The notes: generated by a model from the sequence alone, not told the origin. 64,000 nt of DNA from Bacteroidales bacterium (GCA_028282585.1 JANQHR010000142.1:13403-77402); one strand, 5' to 3'. Positions 1,906-33,290 are shown, counted from the first letter of the stretch. Translations and numbers: made by a program.

Positions 1906-4032
1906 ATGGTTCAAGATATTAGATATTCTTCTGAAGAGGTTAAATCTATGGCATTGTTTGCTAAGTATAACCCTGCGCCTGTTTTTCGTTTCGATAAAGA
2001 GGGAAATATACTTCAGGCTAATTATGCTGCTGAAGAAACTTTCTCAGAAATTATCTCCAGAAATGGAAGAGCTTTTGAGATGATTAAGGGAATTGACCAA
2101 AGCAAAGTTGAAAAGTGTATTAAAAATGGCGATATTCTTTCGTTGGTTGAACATGTTAATGGCAAGAATTTCCGGTTTGAAATGCGAGGCATACCTGAAT
2201 TAAAAGTTATGCAGGTTTATGGCGCAGACATAACTGAAATAGTAGAAACGCAATATGAAAATGAGAAACTTTCAACTGCAGTCTCTCAAACGTCTAATTC
2301 TGTGATGATTACCGACCTTAAAGGCAACATTGAATTTGTAAACGGTGCATTTGAATTAAAATCAGGATATCAAAGAGAAGATGTACTTGGCAGAAACCCG
2401 CGCATTTTAAAAACCAATTACCTCTCAAAAGAGACCTACAAGAAAATGTGGGAAACCATTTCTTCTGGCCATGTTTGGAAAGGAGAATTTCATAACCGAA
2501 GAAAAGATGGTTCTACGTATTGGGAAGAAGCTACAATTAGTCCCATAAAAGATAGAAATGAGGAAATTCAAAACTACATAGCTGTTAAAGAAGATATAAC
2601 AGAACGAAAAAAAGCAGCGGAAAAATTGCATTCGATGGCTTTGTTTGCGGAATTAAACCCGGAGCCAGTAATGCGTTTAGCAGATAATGGTTTGATACTC
2701 CAATCTAACAAAGCAGCTAATGATATTTTTAACGAAGAATCTTTAATAGGGTTTGAAGTTCAGGAATTGATACAAGAAATAGCACAAATTGATTTTTCCG
2801 GTTTTATTAAAAACAATAAAATTGAAACGATTGATATCCAAATTAAAAATAAATTCTACCGGTTTATTTTAAAAGGAATTGCTGAAATCAATGTGTGCCA
2901 AATGTATGGGTCGGATATTACCAGCCGAATCGAAGCCCAAAAAGATGCAGAATCAATGGCACTCTTCGCAAAACTGAACCCGGAGCCTGTTTTTAGGTTC
3001 GATGCCCATGGCATTATATTACAGTCCAACCCGGCCTCAAATGAAGCATTTGGCTCACAAACTATTGTAGGAAAGGAAATTATAGAGCTAATACCCGAAA
3101 TTTCAGATATAAATTTTAAAGAATTTATAGAAAAAAACAGTTTATTAACTATAACAGCAGAGATTGGGCAAAGTATAATGAGATTTATTCTTCGTGGGCT
3201 ATCCCATTTAAACGTATGTCAGATTTATGGTTCAGATATAACTGAAAGAGTCAAAGCACAAAAAAAAATCGAAGAGCAAAAGCAAGCCATTACGGACAGT
3301 ATTCAGTATGCAAGTCGAATTCAAAATGCTGTTCTTCCAAAGCAAGATATAATGGATAATTATCTTTCCGATCATTTTATCTTTTTCAAACCCCGCGATA
3401 TAGTTAGTGGCGATTTTTACTGGATGACTGAGAAAAACAACAAGCTTGTATTAGTTGCTGCAGATTGTACAGGACATGGGGTTCCTGGTGCATTCATGAG
3501 CATGCTTGGTATTTCATTTTTAAATGAAATTGTAAACAAACATAGCTGTGAGAAAGCCAGCACAATTTTAGACGAATTACGCGACCTGTTAAAGTCAACC
3601 CTGGCACAATCGGGACAAGCCACTGATGATGGAATGGATGTAGCACTTGTTATTGTCGATAAAGAAAGTATGAAAATCAATTACGCAGGTGCCTATAATT
3701 CCTTTTATCTGGTAAGAGATGAAGAATTGCAAATAACCAAGGCCGACAGAATGCCTATAGGAAACTATATTAAAGATGATAAGCCATTTACTAACCACAC
3801 AATCGAAATTCGAAAGGGTGATTCGTTTTTTATTTATTCCGATGGCTACCCTGACCAGTTTGGAGAAAAAACAAAAGCAAAATTTTCTACCAAGAAATTT
3901 AAACAACTATTAACTGACATAAGTAAACATTCGGCAGAAATACAAACTCGCATACTTGAACAAGAATTTCAATCCTGGAAAGGAAATCACAGACAAATTG
4001 ATGATGTTTTGATTATAGGGGCTAAAATCTAG
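1906..4032 (+). CDS. Multi-PAS SpoIIE/PP2C (RsbU-like) protein serine phosphatase
   Basis: Four PAS domains, then SIQYASRIQNAVLP...PRDIVSGDFYW...ADCTGHGVPGA...DGMD...YSDGYPDQFG...QIDDVL. Confidence 0.9.
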   Translation: MVQDIRYSSEEVKSMALFAKYNPAPVFRFDKEGNILQANYAAEETFSEIISRNGRAFEMIKGIDQSKVEKCIKNGDILSLVEHVNGKNFRFEMRGIPELKVMQVYGADITEIVETQYENEKLSTAVSQTSNSVMITDLKGNIEFVNGAFELKSGYQREDVLGRNPRILKTNYLSKETYKKMWETISSGHVWKGEFHNRRKDGSTYWEEATISPIKDRNEEIQNYIAVKEDITERKKAAEKLHSMALFAELNPEPVMRLADNGLILQSNKAANDIFNEESLIGFEVQELIQEIAQIDFSGFIKNNKIETIDIQIKNKFYRFILKGIAEINVCQMYGSDITSRIEAQKDAESMALFAKLNPEPVFRFDAHGIILQSNPASNEAFGSQTIVGKEIIELIPEISDINFKEFIEKNSLLTITAEIGQSIMRFILRGLSHLNVCQIYGSDITERVKAQKKIEEQKQAITDSIQYASRIQNAVLPKQDIMDNYLSDHFIFFKPRDIVSGDFYWMTEKNNKLVLVAADCTGHGVPGAFMSMLGISFLNEIVNKHSCEKASTILDELRDLLKSTLAQSGQATDDGMDVALVIVDKESMKINYAGAYNSFYLVRDEELQITKADRMPIGNYIKDDKPFTNHTIEIRKGDSFFIYSDGYPDQFGEKTKAKFSTKKFKQLLTDISKHSAEIQTRILEQEFQSWKGNHRQIDDVLIIGAKI

Positions 4033-26539: not shown

Positions 26540-27403
26540 ATGACTTGGATACTGTTTGCATTTCTCACAGCCTTATTTCGATCATTAACGGATGTTGCAG
26601 GAAAAATTGGCCTAAAAAACATGGATGAGTATGTAGTTGCCTGGGCGTTAAACTTTTTTGCTCTACCACTGCTCTTGCCTTTACTGTTTTTTATCGAAAT
26701 TCCGGAAATTACACCTGGATTTTGGCTGGCTATATGCGTGAGCGGATCATTAAATATCGCAACAGCCATACTTTACTTAAAAGCAATCAAATCAGCAGAT
26801 CTTTCCCTGGTGATTCCGTTATCCACTTTTACTCCCTTATTTTTATTAATTACCTCTCCAATAATTATAGGTGAATTCCCAAACATATTCGGCTTAATTG
26901 GAATATTTTTAATCGTTTTTGGATCTTATATTCTTAATATTAAAGAAAAAAGGAATGGCTTTTTTGCTCCTTTTAAAGCATTATTGAACAATAAAGGAGC
27001 TCAACTAATGTTATTGGTTGCATTTATTTGGAGTATAAGTTCAAATTTCGATAAAATTGGTTTACAAAACTCATCTCCTGTTTTCTATGGCATAATTGTA
27101 AATGTCTTCATAACAATAGGAGTTACTCCCTTTTTATTGATCAAATCTACAAAAAGTCTCAAGCAAATACCTAAAAATCTAAAATCATTAATACCAGTTG
27201 GGTTATTTCATGGTTTAATGATGATATTTCATATGATTGCTATAAGTATGACACTCGTAGCTTACCTCATATCAATTAAAAGAACCAGCGCAATACTTAG
27301 CGTTTTGTTTGGAGCTCTCATTTTTAAGGAGAAGGGATTACAAGAAAGAATTTTAGGAGCTATTATTATGATCTTAGGCGTTTTGTGTATTACTCTTTTT
27401 TAA
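26540..27403 (+). CDS. EamA/DMT family transporter
   Basis: About 10 TM helices with internal duplication; KAIKSADLSLVIPL; LIFKEK. Confidence 0.9.
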   Translation: MTWILFAFLTALFRSLTDVAGKIGLKNMDEYVVAWALNFFALPLLLPLLFFIEIPEITPGFWLAICVSGSLNIATAILYLKAIKSADLSLVIPLSTFTPLFLLITSPIIIGEFPNIFGLIGIFLIVFGSYILNIKEKRNGFFAPFKALLNNKGAQLMLLVAFIWSISSNFDKIGLQNSSPVFYGIIVNVFITIGVTPFLLIKSTKSLKQIPKNLKSLIPVGLFHGLMMIFHMIAISMTLVAYLISIKRTSAILSVLFGALIFKEKGLQERILGAIIMILGVLCITLF

Positions 27404-27472: not shown

Positions 27473-28030
27473 GTGGAAAATAATCAACTAAATCCTTCCG
27501 AATGGATTAACAAGTACGGTGATTACTTGTATAATTATGCTATAACTCGAACACAATCTCAAGAAATAGCTAAAGACTTAATTCAGGATACGTTTCTATC
27601 CGCATTAAAAGCTAAAAAGACTTTTAAAGGTAATAGTTCGGAACGAACCTGGTTAATTGCAATCCTAAAACGAAAAATAATTGATTATTACAGGAACATT
27701 TCTAAACAGAAAGAAGATAAAACATTAAGTAATAAACCTTTTAGGGATTCAGGCTTTTTTAGTGGTCATTGGTTAGATAACAAAACACCAGCCAACTGGA
27801 ATATTGAAAAATCAATTGAAACTGAAGAACTACTTGAGACCTTAAAATATTGTTTATCTCTTCTACCAGAAAAATTGAAAGCTTGTTTTAACTTAAAAAA
27901 TATGGAAGATGTTCCTAATAAAGAAATTTGTAAGGAATTGGAAATTTCTGAGTCTAATTTATGGGTAATGTTACACAGAGCTCGCTTACAATTAAGAGAA
28001 TGCCTGGAAATAAATTGGTTTAGAAAGTAA
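27473..28030 (+). CDS. ECF sigma factor (GTG start) heading the MNIO cluster
   Basis: AKDLIQDTFLSA...FKGNSSERTWLIAILKRKIIDYYR...EICKELEISESNLWVMLHRARLQLRECLE. Confidence 0.93.
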   Translation: MENNQLNPSEWINKYGDYLYNYAITRTQSQEIAKDLIQDTFLSALKAKKTFKGNSSERTWLIAILKRKIIDYYRNISKQKEDKTLSNKPFRDSGFFSGHWLDNKTPANWNIEKSIETEELLETLKYCLSLLPEKLKACFNLKNMEDVPNKEICKELEISESNLWVMLHRARLQLRECLEINWFRK

Positions 28031-28032
28031 TT

Positions 28033-28332
28033 ATGGTTCATAATCATCACAATAAATTAATAAGAGATAAAATGCCCATGATGATTTCATGTGATGAAGC
28101 AACCTATATTATTTCAAAAAATCAACATCAAAAATTAGGTTTTATAAAGCGGATTCAGCTGAAAATACATTTACTTATGTGTAATTATTGTAGAAGGTAT
28201 GAAAATCAAATTCGATTTATAACCGGAATTATTAATAAACTCAAATTATTTCCGGAAAACAATAATTCTAATTATCGACTGGATAACCAGCAAAAAGAGA
28301 ATCTCCAAAAGGAAATAAGTAAAGCTTCTTAA
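28033..28332 (+). CDS. Soluble zf-HC2 (ZAS) anti-sigma factor
   Basis: ISCDEAT...HLLMCNYC (HxxxCxxC); no TM segment; 2 nt after the sigma stop. Confidence 0.88.
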   Translation: MVHNHHNKLIRDKMPMMISCDEATYIISKNQHQKLGFIKRIQLKIHLLMCNYCRRYENQIRFITGIINKLKLFPENNNSNYRLDNQQKENLQKEISKAS

Positions 28333-28348
28333 AAAAACACTCTTTTCT

Positions 28349-28377
28349 TGTAAGGTATTTTCAAACATTACGTCTAA
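28349..28377 (+). promoter_or_regulatory. Putative ECF promoter TGTAAG-N16-CGTCTAA for the RiPP precursor
   Basis: tgtaag-gtattttcaaacatta-cgtctaa about 50 nt upstream of ATG 28427. Confidence 0.7.
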
Positions 28378-28426
28378 ATCTAAATTGTTATTTTTATTAA
28401 ATCTAAATTAATTTAAGCTAACTGTT

Positions 28427-28828
28427 ATGGAAGACAATTCAAAAAAGAAAGCCAGTATCCTTAAAGGAGCTATTCTAACAGGAGTAATAGCAGGCTTAAC
28501 TCCATTATCCGTAAATTCTTCTGCACTATTTTCTTATCATGTACTTGGTTCTGGTGCTGAAGTAAGAACACAAATTTTAGAGGAAAAATCTGTTTCAGGA
28601 ACAGTTTATGAACTAAAATGCGGAAGTGAAAAAGAAGAATCAAAGAAAAAAAGTGAAACCAAAAAAGGTGAGGCAACCAAGGCAGAAAAAGGTAAATCAA
28701 CTGAAGCCAAATGTGGTGAAGGAAAGTGTGGTTCTGAAAAGAAAGAAGGAAAAAGCGAAGAAAAAAAAGAAGGCGAAAGTAAGTCTACCGAAGCAAAGTG
28801 TGGGGAAGGTAAGTGCGGTGTAGAATAA
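28427..28828 (+). CDS. Secreted RiPP precursor with five ExKCG motifs (HvfA/oxazolin or EGKCG-bufferin-like)
   Basis: Sec-type signal; ELKCG plus two copies of KSTEAKCGEGKCG in a K/E-rich matrix; directly upstream of DUF692. Confidence 0.88.
   Translation: MEDNSKKKASILKGAILTGVIAGLTPLSVNSSALFSYHVLGSGAEVRTQILEEKSVSGTVYELKCGSEKEESKKKSETKKGEATKAEKGKSTEAKCGEGKCGSEKKEGKSEEKKEGESKSTEAKCGEGKCGVE
28694..28819 (+). repeat. Two copies of the KSTEAKCGEGKCG coding repeat (28694-28732 and 28781-28819)
   Basis: Identical peptide; 8 of 13 codons differ synonymously. Confidence 0.9.
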
Positions 28829-28840
28829 CATCTTACATTG

Positions 28841-28970
28841 CCTGAGAGCTGTATAACAATAATTCTTATTCAACAGTAATTCACAAACAGCTCAGGGCCC
28901 GGGAATTGGCAGGTTAGTTAGGTTGATTCGAATACATAGTGATATACATTTCCAATTCCTGGGCTTTTTT
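28841..28970 (+). terminator. Double long-loop hairpin ending in U6 (leaky terminator or stabiliser) between precursor and MNIO
   Basis: 28841-52 pairs with 28887-96 (2-nt bulge); 28897-909 pairs with 28952-64 (13 bp, one G-U), then TTTTTT. Confidence 0.6.
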
Positions 28971-28982
28971 AAAACTATAATT

Positions 28983-29822
28983 ATGAAATCAAATATTAAT
29001 ATAGGACTGGGTTTTCGACGGGATCTTACTGAAGAATTCATGTCTCAAAAAACAATCAAACCTGGATTTATTGAGTTTGCACCGGAAAACTGGATTGATA
29101 TGGGTGGCTACTGGGGAAAAGTATTAAGAGAGATTGAAACGAAATATCCAGTTACATGTCACGGATTATCATTATCACTTGGAAGTCCTGAAGAACTAGA
29201 CTGGGAGTTTATTAAAAAACTCAAAATATTTCTTGATGAGCATCATGTTGAAATATACTCTGAACACTTATCCTATACCAAAGCTTCAAATGCTCATTTA
29301 TATGATTTACTGCCAATTCCGTTTAGAGAAGATGCTATTCATCATGTTTCGAAAAGAATAAAACAGGTACAAGATTATTTGCAACGTAAAATCGCAATAG
29401 AAAATGTTTCATATTACACTTCAGTAGCTGCTGAAATGGATGAAGCAACCTTTATTAACAGCATTGTTGAGGAAGCAGATTGTAACTTGTTACTGGATAT
29501 AAATAATGTTTATGTAAATGCATTTAACCATAACTATGATCCAAAGAATTTTATAAAAAAGTTACCACTTGATAAAGTAGCATATATTCATATGGCCGGA
29601 CATGAAAGGGTAGCTCCTGATCTAATTATAGATACTCATGGTGAAGCAATTATTGATCCTGTATATGAATTATTCGAATGGACGATTCAAAGAATGAAAC
29701 CAGTTCCGGTTTTATTGGAAAGAGATTTTAATTTTCCAGAAATAACAGAACTACAATCGGAACTAACTCAACTTGAGTCAATTTGCAAAAGACATTGGGA
29801 GGTTCATTATGAAATTAAGTAA
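28983..29822 (+). CDS. Multinuclear non-heme iron oxidative enzyme (MNIO, DUF692; HvfB/BufB-like)
   Basis: GLGFRR; FAPENW; HGLSLSLGS; SEHLSY; IENVSYY; LLDINNVYVN; HMAGH; IDTHG; LLERD; ATG 28983 preferred. Confidence 0.95.
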   Translation: MKSNINIGLGFRRDLTEEFMSQKTIKPGFIEFAPENWIDMGGYWGKVLREIETKYPVTCHGLSLSLGSPEELDWEFIKKLKIFLDEHHVEIYSEHLSYTKASNAHLYDLLPIPFREDAIHHVSKRIKQVQDYLQRKIAIENVSYYTSVAAEMDEATFINSIVEEADCNLLLDINNVYVNAFNHNYDPKNFIKKLPLDKVAYIHMAGHERVAPDLIIDTHGEAIIDPVYELFEWTIQRMKPVPVLLERDFNFPEITELQSELTQLESICKRHWEVHYEIK

Positions 29823-30570
29823 AGAAACAGAAGCTATTCAAAACTCTTTGGCTCTTTATTGCCGAAGCGGAGTGGAACCTCCAATTCCCGTTTCGCGTCC
29901 CGAGAATTTACCACATTACAGAAGGCTTGTTTTTAATATAGTTTTAAATACTATGCAACAAGCATTTCCAATTGCTTATAAGAATATACCAGCCGATGAA
30001 TGGAAGGATTTGGTGCATAATTTCTTTTTAAAACATGATAGTCAAACTCCTCAAGTATGGAAACTTCCTTTTGAATTTTACCAATTTGTTTCTCAAAATA
30101 ACTATTCGGAACGTTTAAAGAAACCATTTTTAGATGATCTTCTTTTTTTTGAATGGATCGAGATAGAGGTACACACCATGCCAGATATTAAAGCAACCAA
30201 ACATAAAACCAAAGGTAACTTATTTACTGATGTTTTAGTTTTAAACCCTGAATTTAAACTCTTTAAACTAAATTATCCTGTTCATATACATCCACCTGAT
30301 AAGGCTTTGGAACTTCATGGTGACTACTTTGTGATTGCATATCGGCATCCCAATGATTTAAATGTGAGATTCCTTAATTTATCTATTTTACACACTTTTA
30401 TTATAGAAAAATTAATTGAAGAAGAATACACTTTAAATCAAATAGTTGATGATATGTTATCTTTATTTAACATCAACAAGAACGAACTAATAACCAATAT
30501 ATCAACCTTTTTAAATGACCTTTTCAACCAAAAACTAATTTTAGGTTATAAGATTAGTCCTGGCCTATGA
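29809..30570 (+). CDS. MNIO partner protein (DUF2063; HvfC/BufC-like)
   Basis: YRRLVFNIV...AFP...W..LVHNFF..H.SQTPQVW..PFEF...DLLFFEWIE; overlaps the MNIO stop. Confidence 0.88.
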   Translation: MKLSKETEAIQNSLALYCRSGVEPPIPVSRPENLPHYRRLVFNIVLNTMQQAFPIAYKNIPADEWKDLVHNFFLKHDSQTPQVWKLPFEFYQFVSQNNYSERLKKPFLDDLLFFEWIEIEVHTMPDIKATKHKTKGNLFTDVLVLNPEFKLFKLNYPVHIHPPDKALELHGDYFVIAYRHPNDLNVRFLNLSILHTFIIEKLIEEEYTLNQIVDDMLSLFNINKNELITNISTFLNDLFNQKLILGYKISPGL

Positions 30571-30914
30571 TTTTTAAGGCCTGACAACTATGAAATGATC
30601 GGAAATAAATAATTTAGCATCTTGGTTTTAAGGCATGAGTTATCCTTTGCCAAGAATAAGCGCTTACATGGCAGCAAGCATTGAACTATTAGGAGTATTT
30701 TTATTGTTTTTTGGTTTGGGAACAAGAATAATTTCAATTCTTCTAATGTTCATAATGCTTGTTGTTATTTTTACGGTCCATCTCAAAGGAGGACTCAAAG
30801 CTGCAAATAATGGATTTAAAATTCCTCTTTACTACTTTATTATGTTATTCGTTCTACTAATATTAAGGACCCGGTAAAATGAGCGTTGATCGCTTCTTTG
30901 CTAAAAGAAGATAA
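30548..30914 (+). pseudogene. doxX (HvfX-like) pseudogene
   Basis: In-frame IRLVLAYDF*GLTTMK*SEINNLASWF*GMSYPLP...GLGTR...VH...NNGFKIPLYY, then a +1 frameshift to GPGKMSVDRFF; no start codon or N-terminus. Confidence 0.85.
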
Positions 30915-30991: not shown

Positions 30992-31528
30992 CTATTTAAA
31001 ACTATTTCCTTCTACATAATCGACTAATTGTTCCGGTTGATAAATTTTCGCAATATTATCCCAAATATCATATAGATTCTCCACATCGTCTTTCCCACCT
31101 TCAAAACCGTCTCTATTATAATCACTTAAATCAAAATATTCTTTTTCACCAGTATTAACTATCATTACCTCCTGACCTTTTAAATCAATAAACAATTTAA
31201 ATTCCGGGTCATTAGTACCCATTATTTTTTCGAGAAAATTGCGTGAAACTTCAATTGTTAGAATACCATAATTAATTGCTTTGGCATTAAATAAATCTGT
31301 AAAAACATCCGAAATAACTATCCTAAATCCTAAGTCCGATATTGATTTTACCAACTCATCGTAATTACCTACTTTTTCACTGGCAACATCAACAACCAAA
31401 ATTTTTTCTTTATTATCCGGATCAGCTTTTACAATTTTAATGTCTAATGATTCTTGTTCATTTCTTTTAACATCCGTTGCAATTGCAAGCACCCCGGAAG
31501 TTAAAGTACTGTCTTTTGAGATACTCAT
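30992..31528 (-). CDS. Degenerate LeuD/aconitase swivel-domain homologue lacking active-site motifs
   Basis: KILV...GFRIVISDVFTDLF..KAINYGIL.IEVS..FLEK...DP...IDLKGQ...TGEKEYFDL..Y.......GKDD aligns by eye with Bacteroidota LeuD; DTD.I.P and FG.GSSRE are absent. Confidence 0.7.
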   Translation of the reverse strand: MSISKDSTLTSGVLAIATDVKRNEQESLDIKIVKADPDNKEKILVVDVASEKVGNYDELVKSISDLGFRIVISDVFTDLFNAKAINYGILTIEVSRNFLEKIMGTNDPEFKLFIDLKGQEVMIVNTGEKEYFDLSDYNRDGFEGGKDDVENLYDIWDNIAKIYQPEQLVDYVEGNSFK

Positions 31529-31733: not shown

Positions 31734-33290
31734 ATGCCCAATAAAAATAATGATCCACTTTTTCAACTTATAAAATCTCTTACAAAGTCGGAAAAAAGAT
31801 ACTTTAAGTTACATGTAAACAAACAAATAGCTGGAGAGGATACTAAATATTTAAAACTTTTTGATTTAATAGATAAACAAAAAGTTTATGACGAATCTAA
31901 AATTTTAGAAAAGGATAAAACAATTAAAAGTTCTCAATTATCAAATTTAAAGGCTCATCTCTATAAACAAATTCTGCAAAATCTGCGAAGCCTAAATTCT
32001 GATGAAGATATGGACTTGATTATACATGAAATGATTGACCATTCGACAATCCTTTATAATAAATGTCTTTACGATCAATGTATTAAAATGCTTGACAAAG
32101 CAAAAAATCTTGCTGAAAAATATGATAAAAACACATTACTTCTTGAGATTATCGAATTTGAAAAGAGATTGGTAACTAAATATATACGATCAAATATCGA
32201 AAACAAGGTCAGTAAGTTAATTAAAGCTTCCGATGAAATAAATGAACAAATTAATAGTATCAATACGTTCTCGAACCTAACCATTAAACTTTATTCTTTT
32301 TATTTAAATATTGGCTTTTTGCGAAACCATACCGATTTTGAATTAGTTAATAGCTTTTTGTATTCAACCTTACCCGTTTTTCAAGAAGAACAACTTTCTT
32401 TTGACGAAAAAATGTATTTGTACAATTCTTTTGTTGGCTACTATTTCTTTATTCAGGATTTTGATCGTGGTTATGAGTACGCAAAAAAATGGGTAAATCT
32501 TTTTGATGAAAATCCAACTCTAATTCCGTCAAAAATTGAAATGTATATTAGGTCGGTAAATAATTTACTGGTATCTCAATCAAAGCTATTTAAATACGAA
32601 GAGTTCAAAACAACTGTACAAAGGTTAGATGAAATCCTAGATCAAAAAGATTTAAAACTTACTGAAAATATTAGATTATTAGTATTTAAATATTCATCAA
32701 CACATAAAATTAACCGTTATTTTATGACCGGTGAATTCACAGAAGGGTCTAAAATTATACCTGAAATTGCCGAAAGCCTGGAGAACTTTGAACGTTTATT
32801 AGATGTACATTACATCCTTATCTTTTATTATAAGTTCGCTTGCATGTATTTTGGTAATAGTGACTATCAGAATGTAGTTTTTTGGCTCAATAAGATCATT
32901 AATATGAAAGATTTTGACATCAGATCGGACATTCATAGTTTTGCTCGCATCCTTAACCTGATAAGTCATTATGAACTTGGTAATCTTGATTTGATTGACT
33001 ATTACATACGTTCAACTTACCGTTTCCTTATTAAAAAAAATGATTTACATTTGTTTCAGAAAATTATCATGAAATTCTTAAGAAAACTTAGTTCTATAAC
33101 TCGCGACCAACTAATTGACGCATTTAAAGAGTTAAGAGAACAGCTAATTCCTTTAAATGATAAATTTTATGAACGCAGGCCTTTTATTTATTTCGATATT
33201 TTATCCTGGCTTGAAAGTAAAATTGAAAATCGAAATGTTCAGGAAGTAATTCGTGAAAAGGCATTGAAGAAAATAAGTCATAATGCTTAA
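31734..33290 (+). CDS. Conserved all-alpha Bacteroidota protein of unknown function (possible HTH plus TPR-like regulator)
   Basis: LFQLIKSLTKSEKRYFKL...QLSNLKAHLYKQIL; TPR-like helices; ERRPFIYFDILSWLESKI. Confidence 0.75.
   Translation: MPNKNNDPLFQLIKSLTKSEKRYFKLHVNKQIAGEDTKYLKLFDLIDKQKVYDESKILEKDKTIKSSQLSNLKAHLYKQILQNLRSLNSDEDMDLIIHEMIDHSTILYNKCLYDQCIKMLDKAKNLAEKYDKNTLLLEIIEFEKRLVTKYIRSNIENKVSKLIKASDEINEQINSINTFSNLTIKLYSFYLNIGFLRNHTDFELVNSFLYSTLPVFQEEQLSFDEKMYLYNSFVGYYFFIQDFDRGYEYAKKWVNLFDENPTLIPSKIEMYIRSVNNLLVSQSKLFKYEEFKTTVQRLDEILDQKDLKLTENIRLLVFKYSSTHKINRYFMTGEFTEGSKIIPEIAESLENFERLLDVHYILIFYYKFACMYFGNSDYQNVVFWLNKIINMKDFDIRSDIHSFARILNLISHYELGNLDLIDYYIRSTYRFLIKKNDLHLFQKIIMKFLRKLSSITRDQLIDAFKELREQLIPLNDKFYERRPFIYFDILSWLESKIENRNVQEVIREKALKKISHNA

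Follow-up and report, generated by a model that had tools for sequence, protein, structure and literature searches.

A probable hvf-type RiPP cluster with its own sigma/anti-sigma switch in a Bacteroidales bacterium

The biosynthetic genes and their described relatives

The hvf (oxazolin) family of clusters for peptides that are made on the ribosome and modified after translation (RiPPs) has characterised members in Haemophilus, Neisseria and Fontimonas. In the precursor HvfA, the EGKCG cysteines are modified by HvfBC, and the product binds Cu(I) (PMC11252979). The modification in HvfA-type systems has been reassigned to 5-thiooxazole (10.64898/2026.07.17.739211; 10.64898/2026.06.05.730506; PMC13097082), which is still a shift of -4 Da per Cys, with absorbance at ~302-305 nm, and the class of 5-thiooxazole metallophores has been named captophorins. 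Here we analysed a locus at positions 27473-30914 (+) of a 64,000-nt stretch of DNA from Bacteroidales bacterium (GCA_028282585.1 JANQHR010000142.1:13403-77402; this whole stretch is called the window below), in which six co-oriented genes or gene remnants follow one another in the order sigma, anti-sigma, hvfA, hvfB, hvfC and hvfX remnant (Table 1). We consider it highly probable that this locus is an hvf-type (oxazolin/captophorin) RiPP cluster with its own switch, composed of an extracytoplasmic function (ECF) sigma factor and an anti-sigma factor of the ZAS (zinc-associated anti-sigma) type.

A first-pass annotation, made from the sequence of the window, had listed seven elements in this interval, that is, an ECF sigma gene, a zf-HC2 anti-sigma gene, an ECF promoter, a secreted precursor with five ExKCG motifs, a DUF692 enzyme with the full set of iron ligands, a DUF2063 gene and a doxX relic, and all seven were found there, co-oriented on the + strand. 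Its core interpretation, a sigma/anti-sigma-controlled cluster of the EGKCG (HvfA) type with an oxidative enzyme dependent on multinuclear non-heme iron (MNIO), making an exported, Cys-derived and metal-binding peptide, is supported by the present analysis. As for the heterocycles expected from the MNIO, the shift of -4 Da per Cys is retained, and the oxazolone/thioamide structure is the part that has given way to 5-thiooxazole. The family, the chemistry, the partner protein and the sigma/anti-sigma control have all been published already for hvf clusters, and the cluster in the window is a well-preserved, ordinary copy of this known type with one accessory gene decayed.

The proteins of the window were searched with Pfam and NCBIfam models, each judged by the model's own cut-off. 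The product of hvfB, which is the sole MNIO of this 4.9 Mb genome, scored 394.6 with NF003818 (HvfB family; cut-off 360) and 340.4 bits with PF05114 (DUF692), and stayed below the cut-offs of the other equivalogs, namely BufB (NF050167; 278.8 vs 310), MbnB (TIGR04159; 51.9 vs 325), ChrH and ApyH. The closest solved structure was PDB 3BWW (234.8 bits), which serves the Rosenzweig group as a proxy of HvfB. The nine iron ligands of MbnB (His54, His90, Glu133, Asp163, Asn166, His192, Asp208, His210 and Glu239; PMC9060507) align with H60, H95, E140, D172, N175, H203, D217, H219 and E246 of hvfB (HMMER, chain 7tcr_A), and the ligand set is thus complete. The gene next to it, hvfC, has a DUF2063 domain (46.6 vs 27.2) and an NGO1945_C domain (33.9 vs 27), both above the Pfam cut-offs. 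Therefore, of the model searches proposed in the first-pass annotation, those for DUF692 and DUF2063 gave matches and that for zf-HC2 gave none.

The precursor hvfA contains five Cys, all of them in ExKCG motifs, which start at residues 62, 93, 98, 122 and 127 and are arranged as one single motif and two doublets (ELKCG, then EAKCGEGKCG twice). Lys plus Glu make up 52% of residues 61-133, and the N-terminus, basic and then hydrophobic at residues 11-26, is signal-like. No Pfam family, DUF2282 included, matched hvfA. We aligned 63 precursors (that of the window and those of 62 loci that passed a motif filter). After the hydrophobic N-terminus they share a box around LGSGAEVR, in which G41 and R47 never vary and L40 is kept in at least 90% of the sequences. 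The box is followed by 3 to 8 Cys (median 5), most commonly spaced by 5; Gly follows Cys at 342 of the 345 sites and Lys precedes it at 309 of them, and Lys, Glu and Asp together account for a median fraction of 0.45. The two NCBIfam HvfA models match 60 and 53 of the 63 precursors at E<=0.01, and the RefSeq name of the precursor from Prolixibacter bellariivorans is 'HvfA family oxazolone/thioamide-modified RiPP metallophore'. When the box region (residues 24-66) was used in a word-indexed search for homologues, only 6 close relatives came back, none of them named. From the alignment of the 63 precursors, the shared N-terminal box and the Lys/Glu-rich linkers appear typical, and the architecture of hvfA standard for its clade. 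The different architecture ascribed to this precursor in the first-pass annotation therefore holds against the tandem repeats of Haemophilus and does not hold against the 62 related precursors.

We modelled HvfC together with precursor residues 30-70. The model reached ipSAE 0.80 in three runs, against 0.02 for the best of three controls; the runs agreed in at least 94% of contacts, with a partner pLDDT of at least 65. In the calibration, 58 of 80 solved complexes and 2 of 110 mismatched pairs attained this mark; as the present model was built with our own alignments (63 sequences for HvfC), these counts are only approximate for it. In the modelled interface, precursor residues 33-54 meet HvfC residues 159-165 and 185-195, among others; two of these HvfC residues, H159 and V186, vary little or not at all. 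The model supports binding of the LGSGAEVR box by the C-terminal domain of HvfC, which resembles a RiPP recognition element (RRE).

The spacer between hvfA and hvfB (154 nt) contains a hairpin followed by a T-run. A segment of 171 nt (28820-28990) folds at -36.9 kcal/mol (z = -2.37), matched by 2 of 200 shuffles. With a crude detector, a hairpin of -12 kcal/mol or better with a T-run was found in 44 of 66 hvfA-hvfB spacers, whereas the reverse complement gave 23 of 66 and the regions 5' of hvfA gave 1 of 64; a generic terminator scan of the window did not list this hairpin. An attenuating terminator that would favour the precursor over the enzymes is plausible from these folds.

Among the described systems, the hvfX-hvfA-hvfB-hvfC operon of Haemophilus shares with the window an HvfB-family MNIO, a DUF2063/RRE partner, an ExKCG precursor that is predicted here to be secreted and a fourth gene of the DoxX type, and both systems have an ECF sigma paired with a ZAS anti-sigma that is small and cytoplasmic (RpoE2/HrsE in Haemophilus). 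The sigma and anti-sigma genes lie directly 5' in the same cassette here, whereas in nontypeable Haemophilus influenzae they lie elsewhere in the genome (in trans). The precursor of the window has spaced motifs, Lys/Glu-rich linkers and the N-terminal box, in contrast to the three tandem AEGKCGEGKCG repeats of Haemophilus HvfA; hvfX, unlike that of Haemophilus, is last in the cassette and a pseudogene; and neither msrAB nor any other regulon member is found under the promoter in the genome of the window, again unlike Haemophilus. The six gene families of the Neisseria meningitidis/gonorrhoeae locus NMB2140-NMB2145 (doxX, precursor, MNIO, DUF2063, sigmaE and MseR), which is under sigmaE/MseR control (PMC2893595), are the same as those of the window and likewise co-oriented, as compared by description. 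The likeness to this locus proposed in the first-pass annotation is borne out by these family assignments and by the promoter consensus. Note that the gene order is permuted: the Neisseria promoter precedes the whole operon including rpoE, and sigmaE is autoregulated, whereas the promoter of the window lies 3' of the sigma and anti-sigma genes.

Fontiphorin (FonABC) and gonophorin share with the window EGKCG-type Lys-Cys precursors and the pairing of an MNIO with PME1; those systems, which are from Pseudomonadota, are reported to form 5-thiooxazole, to bind Cu and to be induced by stress (PMC13097082). Bufferin clusters (BufABC) have in common with the window a closely related MNIO, DoxX, a DUF2063 partner, a Sec signal peptide that is only predicted in the window and, in some clusters, an ECF sigma (PMC12452194), but they have a DUF2282 or Buf2 precursor and an NrsF-type anti-sigma, unlike the ZAS type of the window; identity with them was rejected on the NF050167 score and on the lack of a Pfam match in the precursor. 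Methanobactin clusters (MbnABC) share the MNIO fold and the nine iron-ligand positions, and differ in the partner protein, in the leader that MbnA carries instead of a signal peptide and in the oxazolone/thioamide product; this identity was rejected on the TIGR04159 score.

A scan for relatives, with one genome per species, yielded 118 MNIO relatives, of which the best 80 were kept (58-93% identity). For nearly all of these best 80, the title of the record gives Bacteroidales, Bacteroidia, Flavobacteriales, Bacteroidota or Chlorobiota, and cultured organisms among them include Prolixibacter bellariivorans, Puteibacter caeruleilacunae, Brumimicrobium and Lishizhenia. HvfB was above its cut-off in 9 of 401 genomes drawn evenly from the phylum, and it was present in 3 of the 40 nearest genomes searched and in 1 of 24 further genomes of the genus. 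At the 66 loci with at least 1800 nt 5' of hvfB, BLASTP with the window proteins found an adjacent co-oriented sigma gene in 47, sigma with anti-sigma in 45 and an hvfA match in 59. The cassette is thus patchy across genomes, and the layout of the window is the commonest in the clade; to judge from these sequences, an hvf cluster is not unusual for Bacteroidota. At locus L007 (G035:C85, 4915-5166), from the same order, hvfB and hvfC are present without sigma and anti-sigma genes; the 250 nt 5' of that hvfB contain no Cys-rich open reading frame (ORF) of at least 20 aa, and the upstream neighbour is a 413-aa ORF with no assigned family.

In the published survey of the MNIO landscape, ~2,000 Buf_EGKCG/oxazolin proteins are described as 'mostly' from Pseudomonadota, and Buf1 clusters are the only ones for which the excerpted text mentions sigma and anti-sigma genes (PMC12452194). 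The string 'Bacteroid' is absent from the main text of PMC12452194, PMC11252979 and PMC13097082, although Bacteroidota members may already be listed in the supplementary data of PMC12452194 and PMC13097082. In a full-text literature search (MNIO, Bacteroidota, EGKCG, thiooxazole), ChrH was the only subfamily for which Bacteroidota were discussed (PMC13056109).

The hvfX gene of the window is a relic. A genome of the same genus (G015; L006/L009) has a syntenic cassette with an intact 143-aa hvfX, and, compared with this, the copy in the window is missing some 22 codons at its start together with the intergenic spacer, is interrupted by three in-frame stops (G015 has Trp and Asp at two of these positions) and has a frameshift near 30867, which places the C-terminal GPGK..SVD motif in another frame. 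In the closest relative (L008; HvfB 93% identical), hvfX is cut to about its first 25 codons and then followed by unrelated DNA (L008:5576-6100). L008 keeps the start of the gene and the window keeps the middle and the end, and therefore the two carry different lesions. Against L008, the five intact genes of the window have ratios of non-synonymous to synonymous substitution rates (dN/dS) of 0.035-0.105 (hvfA, 0.035; sigma, 0.05) at dS 0.53-1.25; these five genes are under purifying selection. At the 66 loci with at least 1500 nt 3' of hvfB, BLAST matched hvfC in all 66 and hvfX in 47, leaving 19 without a match to it. Because hvfX has decayed differently in two close relatives and is missing from those 19 loci, HvfX looks dispensable in nature, an accessory rather than a defining component; HvfX has been reported not to be biosynthetic (PMC11252979).

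Table 1. Features of the hvf-type locus in the window
Feature	Position	Strand	Details
ECF sigma gene	27473..28030	+	185 aa, GTG start; Pfam regions 2 and 4
Putative degenerate sigma-type promoter copy	27930..27957	+	within sigma gene, codons CKELEISESN; one mismatch
Soluble ZAS-type anti-sigma gene (predicted)	28033..28332	+	99 aa; NF052368 and ZAS motif
Putative sigma-dependent hvfA promoter	28350..28378	+	-35 GTAAGGTAT, 12-nt spacer, -10 CGTCTAAA
hvfA precursor	28427..28828	+	133 aa; signal-like N-terminus, LGSGAEVR box (residues 40-47), five ExKCG
Hairpin then T-run (candidate attenuating terminator)	28895..28970	+	between hvfA and hvfB
hvfB, MNIO (DUF692) maturase	28983..29822	+	279 aa; NF003818, PF05114
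hvfC, DUF2063/RRE-type partner (PME type 1)	29809..30570	+	253 aa; overlaps hvfB by 14 nt
hvfX (DoxX-family) pseudogene	30556..30914	+	DoxX 40.2 bits; NF050144 HvfX 65 vs cut-off 80

The sigma/anti-sigma pair and the promoter before hvfA

The sigma protein has Sigma70_r2 (53 bits) and Sigma70_r4_2 (45.5 bits) domains, both above the Pfam cut-offs, and scored 92.4 with TIGR02937 (cut-off 42.9); its top NCBIfam match, TIGR02943, is below the cut-off (146.7 bits vs 162.2). The anti-sigma gene begins 2 nt past the sigma stop codon, and the real start may be at Met14-17. Its product scored 59.5 with NF052368 'antisigmaE' (cut-off 50) and contains the motif C20-x25-H46-x3-C50-x2-C53, in agreement with the ZAS definition C/H-x23-26-H-x3-C-x2-C taken from PMC7907618; the motif is also present in 48 of 48 relatives. 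No Pfam family, zf-HC2 included, matched the protein at E<=0.01. The zf-HC2 label of the first-pass annotation was thus dropped as a basis for the call, and the ZAS anti-sigma itself stands on the NCBIfam match and the motif. With this motif and no hydrophobic segment (top 19-mer hydropathy 0.75, that is, no membrane segment), the anti-sigma is predicted to be soluble and of the MseR/HrsE kind.

In Haemophilus, the hvf operon is induced by HOCl in an RpoE2-dependent manner (PMC7907618). Since that induction is known and the anti-sigma here is of the ZAS type, an oxidant appears better supported than a metal as the signal for the switch of the window; the first-pass annotation had allowed for either.

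The putative promoter, with its 12-nt spacer, stops 48 nt before the hvfA start codon. It is the sole perfect match to the pattern in the window, and when the 4.9 Mb genome was searched with two patterns nothing else matched either of them (2 and 1 matches with the reversed-pattern controls). At two or fewer mismatches the window has 4 matches, when 0.73 are expected, and none of 100 shuffles reached 4; a generic scan for sigma-70-like promoters was at chance level (24 found vs 22.2 expected). In the relatives, GTAAG-N-N15-CG[AT]C[TAC] occurs within 130 nt before hvfA in 46 of 64 upstream regions, that is, in 43 of the 49 with an adjacent sigma gene compared with 3 of the 15 without it, and the spacer of the pattern was 15 nt in all 46 although 14 to 16 were permitted. 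The site in the window agrees with the Neisseria sigmaE consensus of Hopman et al. (-35 GTMAGBWTT, -10 CGTCTAAH, spacer 12-13 nt; PMC2893595) at 8 of 9 positions of the -35 element and 8 of 8 of the -10 element, with the 12-nt spacer, and the two promoters are essentially the same. The site is conserved, and its activity as a promoter would follow from the pairing with this sigma. Because of the uniqueness, the conservation and the fit to the Neisseria consensus, we take the predicted ECF promoter to be real and the sigma-promoter pair to be the one known from Neisseria, as far as sequence comparison can tell.

We found no sigma-type site upstream of the sigma gene, either in the window or at the 47 related loci with an adjacent sigma gene. 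As the sigma-type promoter lies 3' of sigma and anti-sigma and none lies 5', positive autoregulation is not supported. The first-pass annotation had called the cluster self-regulated, and this overstates the case: a dedicated switch is present, and positive autoregulation is the part that does not hold. The gap from the anti-sigma stop to the -35 element is 17 nt and hairpin-free, and therefore transcriptional read-through from the anti-sigma gene into hvfA is possible.

No further member of the regulon was found under the two patterns, as the genome has no other site, and thus none at msr or other genes. Two sites in the window with 2 mismatches, at 796 and 15055, were considered as regulon members and set aside as probable chance matches. 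The former (796-823, +; GTACGGTTATTTAGTAATATTCGACTAA) has the permitted CGACTAA variant of the -10 element, may be a chance match, and ends 22 nt 5' of an ORF at 846-1904 (352 aa, no assigned family), which is followed by a 708-aa ORF at 1906-4032. Four relatives have an extra GTAAG-N15-CGTCT site 3' of hvfX (L052:6897-6922, L057:6897-6922, L077:6160-6185 and L083:6895-6920). In L052 this site precedes a second ECF sigma gene (186 aa) and then a 270-aa ORF taken as its anti-sigma; since this second ECF pair is unrelated, the pattern is not unique to the hvf sigma. At L013:3387-3412 the pattern lies between the anti-sigma gene and hvfB, yet hvfA had no BLAST match there, which suggests a divergent precursor missed by the search.

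A promoter-like site within the sigma gene

Among the 80 loci, 40 of the 50 pattern matches that are not 5' of hvfA fall at one place in the sigma gene, ~100 nt before its stop codon and ~75 nt 5' of the anti-sigma start codon, in the codons C-K-E-L-x-I-x-x-S-N of region 4.2. We examined the codons of 49 sigma genes (that of the window and those of 48 loci out of 49, L058 departing from the motif), taking as background the genes for sigma, HvfB and HvfC at these loci. The site GTAAGG-N15-CGTC is kept through codon choice in 44 of the 49 genes. Lys is AAG in 48 of 48 (background 0.26) and Cys is TGT in 46 of 49 (background 0.51). Codon 8 is xCG in 44 of 49 while its residue varies among Ser, Pro and Ala: TCG for 26 of 26 Ser (0.16 in the background), CCG for 16 of 16 Pro (0.26) and GCG for both Ala. 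All 49 genes have TCN at codon 9, and the synonymous sites that flank the motif vary freely. The constraint thus acts on the DNA itself, via codon choice rather than residue conservation.

On a quick maximum-likelihood tree of 47 sigma proteins, for which the careful search was unfinished, the state of codon 8 changed 11 times. Related sequences are not independent observations; with 11 changes, however, the pattern is not a single inherited accident. The DNA for the helix-turn-helix of region 4.2 may therefore double as a second target promoter (GTAAGG-N15-CGTCT), from which sigma would drive the anti-sigma gene and not its own, giving negative feedback; we put the chances of this interpretation at about even. 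Such wiring, if real, would be the opposite of that of the positively autoregulated Neisseria operon. We found no mention of a sigma-internal promoter site in the two Neisseria papers searched, and this might be the one feature of the present analysis that is new.

It would be a property of the clade and not of the window, in which the site is degenerate. The window reads GAGTCTAA where CGTCTAA is expected, a single mismatch at the first base of the -10 element. Codon 8 is GAG in five exceptions, the window, L008, L009, L013 and L017. In the lineage of the window, L008 and L009, the CG of the embedded -10 element is lost, and hvfX is also lost in two of the three. Most of the clade has presumably retained the embedded promoter, whereas it is weakened or gone in the lineage of the window, which may run the switch without this feedback.

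Proposed mechanism, alternatives and neighbouring genes

The following mechanism, assembled largely from homologous systems, would account for the locus. At rest, the soluble zinc-thiolate anti-sigma would hold the sigma factor, as in its family. Thiol-reactive stress, most likely by oxidants (HOCl or H2O2) as in Neisseria and Haemophilus, would free the sigma, which would then start transcription at the conserved site GTAAGGTAT-N12-CGTCTAAA. The hairpin and T-run 3' of hvfA probably let the precursor outnumber the enzymes. HvfC, according to the docking model, would dock on the conserved box past the signal peptide and present the Lys/Glu-rich tail to HvfB, a predicted diiron MNIO. With O2, HvfB would convert each of the five K-C-G cysteines to a 5-thiooxazole (-4 Da each), as its homologues do, and the modified peptide would be exported by Sec and bind Cu(I) in the periplasm.

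Several points weigh against this interpretation. Expression, modification, export and metal binding are all predicted for the system of the window, and the signal peptide of hvfA was judged from hydropathy alone. hvfA is under both NCBIfam HvfA cut-offs (NF050188, 29.5 vs 95; NF050137, 18.6 vs 19.5), and HvfC is likewise under that of NF050145 (119.4 vs 142). The AlphaFold2 model of the precursor is of low confidence (pLDDT 51.3, pTM 0.16), with only a helix at 43-56, and the docking may owe its high score to a resemblance to solved RRE-leader complexes rather than to this particular pair. The embedded promoter-like site that most relatives keep is degenerate here. Finally, the system of the window would be impaired if HvfX were needed for function, although the 19 loci without hvfX weigh against such a need.

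The same cluster and chemistry might serve mainly in periplasmic defence against oxidants (HOCl, H2O2), with the thiooxazole thiols being sacrificial or redox-active and copper incidental. The ZAS class of anti-sigma answers to thiol oxidation, HOCl acts through RpoE2 to induce the operon of Haemophilus (PMC7907618), the Neisseria sigmaE regulon consists of the hvf-type operon and msrAB (PMC2893595), and oxidative stress, besides excess copper and gold, induces captophorin pathways (PMC13097082). However, the characterised members bind Cu(I) (PMC11252979, PMC13097082), and the promoter occurs at no msr or other gene in the genome, hence no wider oxidant regulon; moreover, the two roles are compatible with each other. 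We regard oxidant defence as the main role as a minority possibility, rather unlikely. A different modification by HvfB (oxazolone/thioamide or another MNIO reaction), or modification of only some of the five Cys, is less likely still. MNIOs catalyse many different reactions according to published abstracts, ELKCG at residues 62-66 is a singleton, and FonBC modified a two-repeat and not a single-repeat test peptide (PMC13097082). Against this, hvfB is above the HvfB equivalog cut-off and far below those for MbnB, ChrH and ApyH, 5-thiooxazoles are the reported product of every MNIO-PME1 system characterised (PMC13097082), and the Cys-Gly and Lys-Cys pairs are found at 342 and 309 of the 345 sites of the 63 precursors, as given above.

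Least probable, and in our view very improbable, is that the cluster is a decaying remnant, the mature product of which is no longer made. The at least five lesions of hvfX, the mutated first base of the embedded -10 element and the rarity of the MNIO among the 24 other genomes of the genus searched would fit such a decay. Nevertheless, the five other genes are open and show the low dN/dS values described above, the iron ligands, the five Cys motifs and the ZAS motif are intact, the promoter before hvfA is a perfect match, and hvfX is missing from 19 of the 66 related loci that keep the rest.

The cluster of the window alone matters little, as the family is published and NCBI models already name its relatives. 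More generally, the comparison suggests that hvfABC is accompanied across phyla by the sigma, the ZAS anti-sigma and the promoter consensus, that the conserved precursor box is a likely docking site of HvfC, and that the single promoter site in the genome offers a cheap test of the regulon. The candidate sigma-internal promoter lends itself to study in relatives that are in culture, for example Prolixibacter bellariivorans.

Directly 5' of the sigma gene, at 26540-27403 (+), lies a gene for an EamA/DMT-family transporter. In Haemophilus, an RpoE2-regulated dmt gene adjoins rpoE2; as a conserved partner, however, the transporter was rejected, being a neighbour in L008 only (1 of 80 loci). Downstream of the cluster, and outside it, are a LeuD-like small-subunit fragment under the family cut-offs at 30992-31528 (-) and a BT2802-family-like protein (188 bits vs cut-off 550) at 31734-33290 (+), both of which are syntenic in the congener G015.

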